This document shows, one piece after another, positions 7,775 through 60,999 of a stretch of DNA of 64,000 nt. Source of the DNA: Eledone cirrhosa (Eukaryota); contig OZ024741.1 of the NCBI GenBank assembly GCA_964016885.1, positions 230,640,001 through 230,704,000 on the forward strand, written 5' to 3'. Numbering within the stretch: position 1 is the stretch's first letter; each line of letters begins with the position of its first letter. The notes beneath the pieces are model-generated. The model ran no database searches. It saw only the letters and a program-made list of their open reading frames with translations, and was not told the DNA's origin. Both the position numbers and the translations under genes were made by a program.

Positions 7775-8180
7775 TAATATAAGATCAAAAGATGGTTAAA
7801 GGAGTTCCATGTATTTTATTATGCGCATTTCAAAAACAAACATCATCATGCAATAATATTTGTGTTTTCATCAGATAAAACAGGAGAACATGATTTGAAG
7901 GCTAAAAAACACTTGTGGATAGTGCAGTTTAAATCAACATATCAACTGCACTATCCACAAGTGTTTTTAGCCTTCATATCATGTTCTCCTGTTTTATCTG
8001 ATGAAAACACAAATATTATTGCATGATGATGTTTGTTTTTGAAATGCGCATAATAAAATACATGGAACTCCTTTAACCATCTTCTGATCTTATATTATGC
8101 ATACTCCAGTCCTACAAACTGTAGAGTGTTTCTTATCCGATATCTGCATTGCTTTATTGTCTACAATAAAACTCACCTCC
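7775..8180. mobile_element. Palindromic HHR element: ~155-bp arms (7775-7929 / 7944-8097), 14-nt spacer, between (TA)n tracts
   Basis: Arms are near-perfect reverse complements and each carries the hammerhead core pointing outward. Sequence continues from the right arm to the (TA)n tract at ~8181. Confidence 0.85.
7989..8061 (+). ncRNA. Minimal type I hammerhead ribozyme motif (PLE type); mirror copy on - strand at ~7811-7883
   Basis: GTTTTAT|CTGATGA(7998-8004)|AAAC...GTTTTT|GAAA(8041-8044)|TGCGCA (palindromic stem III)|TA(8051-8052)|ATAAAAT (stem I partner). Confidence 0.75.
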
Positions 8181-8975
8181 TACATATATATATATATATA
8201 TATATATATATATATATATATATATATATATATATATATATATATATATATATATATATATATATATATATGGATAATTATTTCTCTTCATTCAATCTCC
8301 AGGCAAATATCATTATTTTCAAAGCAAAGATGATTATAATAATACTATTTTTAGTTCTCATGTAACCGATTGTGTTAAGGTTCCCATGGATATCAAATTT
8401 ACCTTTCATATTCGAATACATACCATAGTCATTACTGGAAAAGTTCAGGGTGAGTAACACAACTTTGATTTCATCGATTTTAGAAATGTTTTTTTAGCAA
8501 ATCTAATGTTTTGTATAAACCTCTTTAAACAATCACATGTGAATTTGTTTTTATGAATGGCAGTGAATTATTGATCCGTTTTAAAAGGTGTTTATGACCA
8601 ACTGTATCATTTCCTCAAACAATTTCAATCGATATTTCCTCGCATTCACCGATATCCTCTAATTGCTGCCAATCATCTTGGACAAAGCCTACTTCTAGTT
8701 TTCGGGACTACCGAGGGTATCAGTTCTATCATGTTTCTAAAGAGCAGCTTAACCGTAGAGCACTTACCGCTTGCCATTCCTACGTTATCAGCTCCTGGAA
8801 TATGTATGGTGTTTTCATGCTGTAGTCGTCCTATGATATCATCATCAAGATACACGGCAGCTGTTTAATATCTGGTAAAATGCAACCTGACAAAACAGAT
8901 TCTTTCCCTGCAAAACGTCACGCAAAAATTTAGAGAGAAATGATATATATATATATATATATATATATATATATA

Positions 8976-10223
8976 CTAGGATGGGCTTAAAAGTAAATAG
9001 GCACACTAAGAACGAATGAGGCTAGAGTTGTGAAATCTTGCATGCATTAATTTCCCTCTTTTTATTTATAAGTTCATTGATTTTTTCCCCGAACTGATAT
9101 CTGACTGTTGAAAGAGACTTCAAAAGTAACTAGGAGCGATTTCACTTGAAAATGGACAACATTTGGCACGGGGGTGTTATCAATTATCCGCAGAAAAAAT
9201 GTAACCCCCAAGGACATTTATGCCGTCATGGTTGCTACATTGGGGGACGAGGCTCCAGGTTTATCAACAGTACAAAAGTGGGCAGCTGAATTTAGAAAGG
9301 GATAGGAGAGCCTTGTAGATCAACCAAGGTTCTTCCCTGCGAGGAGAACACTAATCTTGTTCACCACATGGTGGTGGGTGACAAGCGCTTGACTATAAAT
9401 TAGATAGCCAATGCTATTGTCATATCCCATCAGAGAGATGAAAATATTCTGCACAATGAACATGGCATGAGGGAGGTTTCTACTCGGTTGGTGCTACATC
9501 TACTGACACCTTATCAAAAGCGCACTACTCTGATAACATCAAGGAAAAATCTGTCATTTATTTCTTCGAACGTTTTTTATCCCAAGATGAGTGTTAGGTT
9601 CATCACTTCTATCCAGAGACAAAGAGACAATCCGTGCAGCAGAAACACTACAACTCACCTGCTCTAAGATGGTCAATGTCAATTCATTTACAGGGAAGGT
9701 GGTTGCCTCAATTTCTTTGGCGATGCAAAAGGCATTGTGTATATTGACTAATTTTAGAACGGTTATATCATCAATGGGGATTACTACGTCTACTTGCTGA
9801 GGCAGTTGCGAAAGGTTATCAAGAACAAATGCCGAGAAAAAAAACTGTCGAAACTGTTCTTGTTTCATCTGGACAATGTTCCAGTACAAAAGTCCTTGAT
9901 CTCACTGGCTGCTATGCGTAACTTTGGCTTTGAACTGTCTGATCACCTCCTTCATATTCTCCTGATTCATCACTATCATCTGTTGCCCAACATGAAAAAT
10001 CACTTGGCTGGGAACAAGTGTTGCAGTGATGATGAAGTAATATCTGTTGTTGGTTTTTTTACCAACAGGATAACATTTTCTTCACCAATGAGGTCCAATC
10101 ACTGCAACACTGATGACAAACGTATGTGGACCACAAGGGGAATATGCTGTAAAAATAAACCCCAGATGGTCATATTCCATGAGAATAGCTTGGCCAGCCT
10201 ATGAACGTATCACGCGAAACTCG
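8976..10223 (+). mobile_element. Decayed Tc1/mariner DNA transposon (transposase pseudogene)
   Basis: Frameshifted mariner motifs: LGDEAPGLSTVQKWAAEFRKG (HTH), REVSTRLVLHLLT (WVPHxL-like), FLFHLDNVP (HDNA-like), LLPNMKNHLAG. TA on both sides and imperfect TIRs. Confidence 0.85.
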
Positions 10224-10710
10224 TATAACATATTTTCACCAAAGCAGCATACAGGGACTATGATTAACACCCCACCATTTAGGGTCAAAAGCAACCTATC
10301 TCCAGAATGAAATCTGCTGGATGCGAAATAGATGTAACGAATCGAAGTTAGGCATTTATGATTTCAAATGATTACTGCCTTCTATCGTTTTTCTTGGTGC
10401 AACACACTTTAACTGTTGCGTTTAATCTAGACGGTAATGTATTAACATATCATTCTATTGAGTGCTTTGTGATTACCTCAATTAACACGATTGGTATAAT
10501 TCTTCACAGTTTTACTGTTTTCAGCTTTTTAGTTTATTATAACGATTTTTCCAAGTATTTATATTTTTTCGGGAAAATGTGTTCGAGATCAGTAATATAT
10601 ATAAATATTCTAATCAGTTAAGATATATTATTTTACGGATTTTATTTCCAGTAAGTATTCTATTATTAACTACAGTTACATCATTATAACCCGTGATGTA
10701 TCTATTGTAG

Positions 10711-10863
10711 ATGTGATATTTACTTCTGACGATTCTTCAGATTTGACTTGCAAAGGTACTTCAGCTATACTAACCTGTCGAGGAAACCTTTACACTTCTC
10801 ACCTGAGGGCGATTACTAAAGAAAAAAGTGAAGACCAGTGTATCACCCATATCAGAATTTATG
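10711..10863 (+). CDS. Probable host gene exon (3' part of an extracellular domain; ...CITHIRIYG)
   Basis: Acceptor TAG at 10708-10710 (alternative in-frame CAG at 10738-10740). Donor G|GTAAGT at 10863/10864. Phase 1 joins in frame to the exon at 29714. Confidence 0.6.
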
Positions 10864-60088: not shown

Positions 60089-60171
60089 TCACCCGGACGG
60101 TTTTTGATGGAACCGTTTCGCAATATTAATTGTGAAGAGGTACATCAAATGCTTAGCTCATCAGCGGGTGA
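60089..60171 (-). ncRNA. Type I hammerhead ribozyme motif with canonical core
   Basis: Minus: TCACCCG|CTGATGA|GC..GC|GAAA|CGGTT-ccatcaaa-AACCG|TC|CGGGTGA; 7-bp perfect stem I. Confidence 0.88.
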
Positions 60172-60610
60172 AGAATTAGTATCAGATCACTTCTAAATAA
60201 AATAAAGATCTGGATAGTGTGTGTATATGTAACGCACATGGTTTCCGAACTTAGCGCGCCGCGCAGACTCACGTCACTAAAAATAGCAGCATGGTCTATG
60301 CGACATTTGAATTAGCTCTACGAATTAACGGAGCCGAATATATCAAAAGCATGTATTGAGTTAGAAACTCAAAATAGTCTCATTACAGTAAAATTAGCTC
60401 TAGGAAAAAGGTTTTTCCGAGCCGTATAGTATAACTGAACAAAAAAGAAAAACGAACACAGACATATACATGTATACGTTCAAATCGTAATGGTCCAGAA
60501 ACGCTAAGGTGAAAAAAATAATGTAACTACAGACAATAGGGTTTGCTAGACTCAATTTAAGAATAAATCAAGAAAAATAAATACAAACCAGTATTGTGGT
60601 AACTACCCAA

Positions 60611-60691
60611 CACCCGGACGGTTTTTGATGGAACCGTTTCGCAATATTAATTGTGAAGAGGTATATCAAATTCTTAGCTCATCAGCGGGTG
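60611..60691 (-). ncRNA. Type I hammerhead ribozyme motif with canonical core (tandem copy)
   Basis: Same core and stems, 521 nt from the first copy. Confidence 0.88.
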
Positions 60692-60999
60692 AAGAATTAG
60701 AAACCCTATTGTCTGTAGTTAGTATTTCTTTTTCACCTTAGCATTTCTGGTCCATTATGATTTGAACGCATAATGGTAAATGTCTGTGTTCGTTTTTCTT
60801 TTTTGGTCAGTTATAATATACGGCTCGGAAAAACCTTTTTCCTAGAGCTAATTTTACTGTAATGAGACTATTTTGAGTGTCTAAGTTATCGTTATAGGTA
60901 ATCCAGTTAGAGGTTGTGAATACTCTGTATTGTGGATAGTTTTAACCTACGACTTTGTTTGACTCAACAAGATGTTTCCATAGTTAGGTAGCGAGTTCG

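Follow-up and report, generated by a model that had tools for sequence, protein, structure and literature searches.

Introduction

Inverted, 5′-truncated copies, often with a tail at one end only, and a bias toward microsatellites have been described for Penelope-like elements (PLEs) (PMC8557442, PMC3846280), and PLEs of the Hydra clade insert in (TA)n (PMC8557442). How tandem and inverted copies with a one-sided tail are made is named as an open question in the available text of three studies (PMC8557442, PMC11167929, PMC3846280). Here we analyze a stretch of 64,000 bp from Eledone cirrhosa (assembly GCA_964016885.1, contig OZ024741.1, positions 230,640,001–230,704,000; "the window"), in which six families of hammerhead-bearing elements, A to F, form head-to-head insertions, together with copies of these families elsewhere in the genome. 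Every family has two fixed 3′ ends, almost all classifiable pairs combine one of each, and in four families a similar small hairpin follows both ends.

The closest described relatives are the endonuclease-positive PLEs of the Hydra clade, including octopus Hydra-1_Obim (Craig et al. 2021, PMC8557442). They have the same C-terminal GIY-YIG nuclease, RW and DKT motifs, CxCx5C linker, and CxxC and CxH motifs, and likewise a hammerhead in the pseudo-long terminal repeat (pLTR), a (TA)n target, tandem and inverted copies, and a tail at one end. Their tails measure 30–40 nt versus 65–86 nt here, paired use of two ends and a twin hairpin are absent from the available text of that study, and the families here are placed by motifs. 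Non-autonomous PLE partners are also known (PMC8557442). PAc, a Poseidon element from the green anole (Frangieh et al. 2024, PMC11167929), shows the same cutting and extension of both strands at AT-rich DNA; two internal starts of reverse transcription bound its tail, RNA downstream of these starts is needed, and a dimer is predicted. PAc uses uncleaved hammerhead RNA, which we count as a likeness. It belongs, however, to another clade, its starts lie inside the open reading frame (ORF) in an AC-rich stem-loop, and neither a twin motif nor a pairing of one site per strand is reported in the part of the paper available to us.

Metazoan non-LTR (long terminal repeat) retrozymes (Cervera and de la Pena 2020, PMC7229834; Li et al. 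2026, 10.64898/2026.07.22.740005) consist, like families B, D, and F, of non-coding tandem units with type I hammerheads, and have been proposed to be moved by PLEs. In B, D, and F, the ends show the head-to-head, one-tail signature of PLEs directly, and F has the Hydra twin hairpin; the F unit, at about 518 bp, is longer than the 150–450 bp described in these studies. In Adineta vaga, Penelope forms head-to-head pLTRs with the same inverted arrangement, an optional one-sided tail, and 8–10-bp target duplications, and acts in trans on pLTR-flanked DNA, again a likeness (Arkhipova et al. 2013, PMC3846280). There, the structures were explained by self-priming on an antisense template. Our data favor two primed cDNAs, with fold-back as a minor route.

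In twin priming by L1 elements, a single RNA is primed from both strands of the target, and microhomology serves to join the cDNAs, as proposed here. The second L1 primer anneals internally at variable places, and the inverted part does not duplicate the 3′ end. In contrast, the starts described here are fixed, 28–86 nt apart, and the 3′ region is duplicated as a palindrome.

The architecture of an inverted copy with a one-sided tail, a (TA)n target, and a hammerhead has thus already been published for PLEs and is not new. No description of the pairing rule or of the conserved twin cis-element was found in the literature searched, which did not include subscription papers.

Pairing of two fixed 3′ ends

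A preliminary description of the window, made from its letters without database searches, had proposed seven insertions with the ribozyme strand minus on the left and plus on the right. Self-BLAST of the window showed inverted arms, 84–96% identical, at all seven places, and library annotation gave a minus block on the left and a plus block on the right in each. Overlooked until now were the inequality of the arms, one arm per insertion having a 28–86-nt tail, and an eighth insertion of the same type, a family D array at 1–6819. The earlier limits of the A, C, and E insertions omitted the 3′ tail; refined limits are given in Table 1.

Throughout the genome copies, every family has two fixed 3′ ends, proximal and distal, 28–86 nt apart. 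Pairing was scored in samples of 30 loci per family plus 20 protein matches; removal of 11 overlapping or duplicate loci and 6 window self-hits left 183 loci with 145 inverted pairs and 133 single blocks. Orientation was not random: the 145 5′-to-5′ pairs compare with 4 same-family 3′-to-3′ neighbors, three of which have TA between them. Both ends were classifiable in 113 pairs, the others having one end at the locus edge or at neither site, and 109 of the 113 combined a proximal with a distal end, two having two proximal and two having two distal ends. The insertion unit of endonuclease-positive PLEs, an inverted 5′-truncated copy with a tail at one end, was found in 109 of the 113.

Because the queries contained the tail, the unbiased figures are those from bystander pairs and from a cross-reference of family A. 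Among unselected bystanders, 27 of 28 pairs were mixed (P = 1e-7 against the 50% ceiling for independent choice), and crossing two genome-wide motif lists for family A on contig C1 gave 25 mixed pairs in 31 (P = 4e-4). Independent choice of ends would yield at most 50% mixed pairs, and the observed pairing lies above that ceiling. Twenty further A matches comprised 7 mixed pairs, 1 pair resembling two distal ends, 2 internal tails, and 10 single or unresolved cases. The exact A motifs are unequal in number genome-wide (12,332 distal, 6,274 proximal), partly because the distal motif also matches internal tails and single arms; these counts are no test of pairing.

The insertions are not an assembly artefact, as shown by locus-specific differences between arms, thousands of family copies (exact motif counts of 5,054 for B and 33,439 for E, besides those of A), and joints in short-read contigs. 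Many joints between left-arm and right-arm positions of B are present in such contigs, from a run that may be of the assembly's own sample.

A twin hairpin next to both ends

In families A, C, E, and F, a hairpin of the form RCTC-loop-GAGYAC starts 3–9 nt past both the proximal and the distal end, at 8 of 8 sites against a background rate of 3.5% per site; the proximal site of C was read from the consensus, and sequence beyond the distal end from tandem copies. At the proximal site, the stem is ACTC/GAGT in 57 of 60 A, 21 of 23 C, and 32 of 36 E copies, and at most other hairpin sites it is GCTC/GAGC, with a loop of variable length. The spacing of the two hairpins equals the tail length. The first hairpin lies in the tail, and the second is absent from the copied ends and must therefore act in the template. 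Family D has a variant hairpin after the proximal end only, and family B has none; an apparent similarity between the sequences after the two ends of family D proved to be an overlap artefact.

As the motif had been found post hoc, it was tested outside this genome. An alignment of 22 Hydra-type proteins retrieved 78 loci from marine metagenomes, of which the 35 with a match starting near the protein N-terminus were used. Two hairpins were found in 17 of the 35 5′ leaders and at least one in 26, compared with means of 0.2 and 3.9 in shuffled leaders and 0 and 7 in an ORF control. They lie downstream of the hammerhead where one is present (18 leaders by a loose pattern), and 36 of 39 stems are GCTC/GAGC, mostly followed by ACT. 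In the 10 contigs in which the repeat ended inside the contig, 8 element ends lay no more than 4 nt to either side of where a hairpin starts (1.0 expected; 0 of 200,000 draws), at the first or the second hairpin and several of them running into (TA)n. The remaining two ends lie a few bases before look-alike variants.

Origin and joining of the two arms

In all six families, the arms of one insertion share derived variants 3–50 times more often than arms of different insertions (per kb, same versus cross: 23.5 versus 6.4 in E, 2.2 versus 0.04 in A). An 11-nt marker of E subfamilies was identical in both arms of 8 of 10 pairs but in only 5 of 90 cross pairs. Both arms of an insertion thus derive from the same source. 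The shared variants, together with a target duplication round a whole pair (see below), bear out the earlier view that each insertion is one event.

Arm lengths differ between families. At all 30 A loci, the proximal-end arm reaches the 5′ limit and the distal-end arm is 10–14 nt shorter, whereas the distal-end arm is the longer one in most pairs of B (8 of 13), D (10 of 12), and F (14 of 17), figures that are biased by the query. Since either arm can extend further 5′, one is not merely a copy of the other, and fold-back of one strand cannot account for the two geometries together with a one-sided tail. The joints show 1–5-nt microhomology or short templated insertions. In family A, the joint varies by single bases, with 13 forms in 31, and must therefore be made anew at each insertion. 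Short copies stop just upstream of or inside the hammerhead, at about 240–254 (A), 205–260 (C), and 125–145 nt (E) from the distal end, and a full-length C copy in locus L201 begins where short C copies stop; such family-specific stops are consistent with the RNA 5′ end or a strong stop.

Mixed-family neighbors are rare, with 4 adjacencies against 145 same-family pairs. Two of these are plainly separate events, and the joints at L106:1501-2100 (D with a C-like arm) and L116:1501-2051 (D with E), both distal–distal, represent two-RNA events or later deletions. One family A insertion, L237 (with L247 and L248; G000:C1:35,311,001-35,320,500), forms the center of an inverted duplication with 3.9-kb arms that are 99.3% identical and include at least 3 kb of flank. 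Fold-back thus occurs as a minor route.

Identity of the six families

By their sequence motifs, families A, C, and E are assigned as the ends of three separate autonomous Hydra-clade PLEs. Genome copies contain an intact ORF of 800 aa for A (L242:1191-3590) and open frames of 741 aa for C (locus L201) and 738 aa for E (L222). The C and E proteins are 37–49% identical to that of A and 39% to each other, and each ORF encodes, in a single frame, a reverse transcriptase (RT) with a GIY-YIG nuclease at the C-terminus (motifs identified by eye). The RT motif YRDD is retained in L242 and L222 and is YRDY in L201; Pfam gave no PLE domain match. Residues W38, D117, K118, C572, C574, C669, C672, C697, and H699 are invariant in the 22 aligned Hydra-type proteins. 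The diagnostic features of the Hydra clade are present, namely DKT, the CxCx5C linker, CxxC, and CxH, without CCHH, with RWR or RWT replacing RWK, and the published Hydra RT motif (supplement rows of PMC8557442, including Hydra-1_Obim) matches by eye. A, C, and E also have both the hammerhead in the pLTR and the (TA)n target that characterize the clade. The clade Nematis, considered for these families, was rejected on the basis of the alignment and the available text of PMC8557442.

The long A copies, such as L242, were found by crossing two genome-wide motif lists; a search anchored on the junction had hidden them. Their ORFs led us to reject A as a stand-alone non-coding short interspersed element (SINE). 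A palindrome copied whole is excluded by the variation of its center between copies. The variable center, unequal ends, and RT ORF of the long copies also speak against short A copies being miniature inverted-repeat transposable elements (MITEs) or fold-back DNA transposons. Protein remnants were confirmed in the C and E insertions of the window. The preliminary count of two coding and five non-coding insertions therefore holds for the window copies, but three families (A, C, and E) bring their own enzyme.

Families B, D, and F are judged from sequence to be of the retrozyme type (non-LTR retrozymes), with non-coding tandem units of 429, 320, and 518 bp, respectively, and conserved type I hammerhead cores. 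No ORF-bearing parent was seen in 30 loci of each, a sample in which the A parent is equally invisible. A very young D-like insertion, L220, lies about 84.6–87 kb to the right of the window; its 310-bp units carry a canonical hammerhead, and these units, 4.3 and 2.5 in number, are 99.7–100% identical, as expected from a circular or multimeric template. Pieces of Neptune-like endonuclease ORFs, identified by eye at L201:459-1166 (−) and L233:2461-2937 (−), mark a candidate partner for family B.

Hammerhead ribozymes

A strict scan for type I hammerheads in the window gave seven perfect and one one-mismatch hit, all in A, B, C, and F, with minus polarity in left arms and plus in right arms; eight shuffles of the window gave no perfect hit. 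As proposed in the preliminary description, all six families have a hammerhead, canonical in A, B, C, and F and a U3·A8 variant in D and E, for which reason the latter two were missed by the strict scan. The notion that D and E are ribozyme-free was rejected, since the core is TTGATAA/GAAA in 28 of 31 genome copies of D and TTGARAA/GAAA in 21 of 23 of E. A relative of D located 85 kb to the right of the window has C3–G8 where D has U3·A8, a compensatory change. Rfam reported no hammerhead at the gathering score, nor among the 150 matches listed at E ≤ 10. In the window, the hammerheads are decayed in both E arms and the left B arms, and the right F arm has none. The hammerheads of A and C are related (71% over 73 nt). 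Both the U3·A8 variant and hammerhead pairs on opposite strands, 100–700 bp apart, have been published for PLEs (PMC4209133). Further single cores or core-like sequences outside the seven loci, at 40914 (−), 26795 (+), 7601 (+), and 54649 (+), indicate that other families exist.

Target sites

Of the proximal ends of genome copies, 130 of 141 adjoin at least three TA units, as do 173 of 220 distal ends; the figure for random 25-nt windows is 622 of 7182, so that the (TA)n flanks first noted in the window are borne out far above background. The B insertion at 16480–17495 lies outside (TA)n, and a 9–10-bp target duplication flanks the whole pair. Clear duplications were seen in this and a few other cases; overall, they are not enriched (25 of 113, versus 11–22 in controls), because pure (TA)n hides them.

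Proposed mechanism of insertion

The model that we favor, with a probability of roughly 60%, is that an RT dimer sits on both hairpins of one RNA, that both cut target strands are primed, and that the resulting cDNAs are end-joined. The RNA leader would contain a hammerhead followed by two matching hairpins 55–90 nt apart. A dimer of the RT/GIY-YIG protein would bind both hairpins of a single RNA and cut both strands of a (TA)n or AT-rich target, as has been shown in vitro for another PLE, PAc. The two subunits would then begin reverse transcription on different cut strands, each doing so a few nucleotides 5′ of the hairpin that it occupies; the positions of these starts are observed, and we propose that the hairpins cause them. 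Of the two resulting arms, one would lack a tail and the other would have one, namely the sequence from one start to the other. The two cDNAs would stop independently, often at the RNA 5′ end or a strong hairpin, with the trailing RT presumably displacing a strand, and their ends would be united by microhomology-mediated end joining, of which the junctions bear the signature and which a host repair enzyme would carry out. On a tandem or circular retrozyme RNA, each arm may run through many units.

We put forward more tentatively, at somewhat less than even odds, that the twin hairpin is the docking site of the dimer, that one RNA is copied twice at once, that tail length is set by the spacing, and that retrozymes keeping or mimicking the pair hijack the system. 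Mobilization in trans appears plausible for F, which has both hairpins, and for D, which has one variant hairpin. That B and D obey the pairing rule without the full motif would reflect either other signals or another PLE clade.

The strongest competitor, although improbable in our estimation, is that the two cDNAs are made from opposite strands but on separate RNA molecules of the same active source locus; through asymmetry of the dimer, or through a set order of first- and second-strand synthesis, one cDNA would use the proximal and the other the distal start. This would explain the unequal arms and the shared variants without one RT displacing the cDNA of the other, and it permits the fairly clean mixed-family joints at L106 and L116. 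The strict pairing, however, requires an extra rule, and because copies number tens of thousands and E has several subfamilies, a free choice of RNA should yield more mismatched arms than are seen; both mixed-family joints are, moreover, distal–distal and possibly later deletions.

We give a somewhat smaller chance to fold-back, in which an antisense cDNA or RNA primes itself, is copied, and is trimmed by the nuclease, so that the twin motif would be a nuclease site in DNA rather than a start signal in RNA. This is the published hypothesis for head-to-head PLE structures (PMC3846280); the tail has been ascribed to resolution by the nuclease (PMC8557442) and is needed for recognition by the Drosophila virilis nuclease (as cited in PMC11167929). 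Short templated insertions and near-palindromic centers do occur, L237 and L236 have the inverted flank copies that fold-back predicts, and the geometry of family A alone is compatible with it. No single polarity fits all families, however, as the loop would come from the tail-less arm in A but, in most pairs of B, D, and F, from the tailed one. Inverted flanks are absent in 121 of 123 mixed pairs, a loop that varies in length is more in keeping with a hairpin in RNA than with a site in DNA, and both tail ends have been mapped as RT starts in vitro (PMC11167929).

The preliminary description had inferred a TA-targeting PLE enzyme that primes two cDNAs from opposite strands and mobilizes several unrelated ribozyme RNAs in trans. 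Its first part agrees with the TA flanks, with the finding that either arm can be the longer one, and with the two-strand extension published in vitro. That one such enzyme moves all six RNAs by symmetric priming we regard as quite unlikely. The common architecture and target would fit, and so would the cis-motif common to A, C, E, F, and partly D, which one protein might read. Against this stand the separate ORFs and leaders of three autonomous Hydra elements, the relatedness of the A and C hammerheads, the rarity of mixed-family pairs, the absence of the motif from B, and the Neptune-like endonuclease ORFs seen by eye in L201 and L233; the two primings are, in addition, unequal and paired rather than symmetric. 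That two independent insertions in one microsatellite, or assembly artefacts, merely mimic a unit is very improbable: (TA)n tracts do collect several elements and the 100%-identical palindrome at 39567–40038 may be an artefact, but the joints contain no (TA)n, 5′-to-5′ pairs far outnumber 3′-to-3′ neighbors, both arms share family and subfamily, a target duplication surrounds a whole pair, and the arms are 4–15% diverged.

Several observations weigh against the copying of one RNA by a dimer on two hairpins. Shared variants could also reflect two RNAs of one source locus or gene conversion between arms, and a register test on multimeric arms gave no demonstration that both had copied one molecule. 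The 133 single blocks, many of them cut by locus edges, lack an inverted partner. Pairs with the same end on both arms also occur, making up 6 of 31 in the unbiased list for A; they include the inverted duplication with at least 3 kb of flank and a case with a short inverted flank, and the others are unexplained. Short inverted flanks occur at L236 and L068 and in 2 of 123 mixed pairs. Classifiable pairs follow the rule in 13 of 13 B and 12 of 15 D cases, although B has no hairpin and D has just the variant of the first one, so that the motif in its present definition does not explain everything. Its definition followed inspection of the data, and its distal member rests in this genome on few copies (2–3 in A, with a stem mismatch in 2; 4 in C, 2 in E, and 12 in F). 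Target duplications show no overall excess. Finally, the start sites of PAc did not differ from strand to strand in vitro (PMC11167929), which fits the pairing but does not show it.

If correct, the proposed docking would explain in general terms both the tail of PLEs and their head-to-head structure, and the twin hairpin would be a cis-signal that could be carried over to other RNAs for templated insertion at two ends. Sharp predictions follow from the pairing rule and the hairpins about the start nucleotide on each strand, the determinant of tail length, and which non-coding RNAs an enzyme moves. Retrozyme F is tied to a PLE clade by sequence evidence rather than by co-occurrence. Two-ended insertion would also account for the small palindromes, tens of thousands in number, by which this genome seems to contain MITEs of DNA transposons.

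Other features of the window and its surroundings

Table 1. Arms, hairpin, and target duplication of the head-to-head insertions (window positions)
Feature	Position	Strand	Remarks
Family D arm, right part	1–6819	+	whole arm 11 kb, about 35 units; distal end in (TA)n
Family A tail-less (proximal-end) arm	7774–7943	−	reaches the family's usual 5′ limit; hammerhead core 7874
Family A tailed (distal-end) arm	7944–8183	+	hammerhead core 7998; tail 8099–8183; assigned as end of autonomous Hydra PLE (locus L242)
Family A hairpin 1 (ACTC/GAGT)	8103–8131	+	4 nt past proximal end
Left copy of 9-bp target-site duplication, B insertion	16476–16484	+	right copy 17494–17502
Family B proximal-end arm (429-bp retrozyme-type unit)	16480–17081	−	1.4 units; hammerhead decayed
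Family B distal-end arm	17080–17495	+	hammerhead core 17189; 56-nt tail; 2-nt microhomology at joint
Family C proximal-end arm	21254–24040	−	Hydra-type RT/linker remnant (open frame 23066–24046); hammerhead core 21361
Family C distal-end arm	24013–25698	+	hammerhead core 25526; 65-nt tail; hairpin 1 at 25633
Family D proximal-end arm (320-bp retrozyme-type unit)	25814–26360	−	
Family D distal-end arm	26359–26724	+	U3·A8 hammerhead core 26516; variant hairpin (GCTA/GAGCAC) at 26698
Family E proximal-end arm	27183–28586	−	C-terminal Hydra ORF remnant near 28471–28600; hammerhead decayed
Family E distal-end arm	28586–29655	+	decayed U3·A8-type hammerhead from 29473; 78-nt tail; hairpin 1 at 29583
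Second family B insertion, proximal-end arm	54898–55504	−	
Second family B insertion, distal-end arm	55534–56249	+	hammerhead core 55941
Family F proximal-end arm (about 518-bp retrozyme-type unit)	59906–60700	−	1.5 units; hammerhead cores 60164, 60685; internal twin hairpins start 60422, 60334
Family F distal-end arm	60701–60884	+	without hammerhead; hairpin 1 at 60823

The proximal-end arm of the family D array at the left edge is short and lies 4.3–4.7 kb to the left of the window (locus L211). The units of the array are all 84–93% identical to this inverted arm, and the whole looks like a satellite that arose through a single insertion and was afterward interrupted, at 3128–3310, by another repeat. 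A further head-to-head element, L204, about 72.7–77.6 kb to the left of the window, has 1.7-kb arms that are 99.2% identical, a hammerhead-like core on each arm, a tail on the right, and both ends in (TA)n.

Tails point to the right in all seven window loci and in 12 of 13 classifiable insertions in 244 kb (the window plus 90 kb on each side). Neighboring tails in the loci agreed in direction 54:32, these pairs not being independent, and a runs test on 100 E tails gave P = 0.014. Among 300 tails of three families on contig C1, however, nearby tails showed no tendency to agree (145 of 279 within 100 kb, P = 0.29), and genome-wide the strands are even. A general tie between tail direction and chromosome context is therefore unsupported; around the window, the direction may be linked to the plus-strand host gene.

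The insertions sit in introns of a plus-strand gene with EGF-like exons, recognized by eye; exon-like pieces of this multi-EGF, lectin-like host gene lie at 29713–29860, 31380–31740, and 57351–57490 (+). A perfect 472-bp palindrome at 39567–40038 has (TA)n at its center, a layout opposite to that of the PLE pairs, and is either a recent fold-back or an assembly artefact; it overlaps a Helitron-like remnant (open frame 39144–39629, labeled by eye). Decayed elements with RT and endonuclease of the long interspersed element (LINE) type and an LTR-type integrase remnant were recognized by eye at 13152–15997 and 51165–53977, 35479–36875, and 61943–63221. A dispersed repeat of about 185 bp, probably a SINE, is present in six copies, at 3128–3310, 19410–19529, 34602–34799, 37788–37973, 41520–41686, and 48694–48878.

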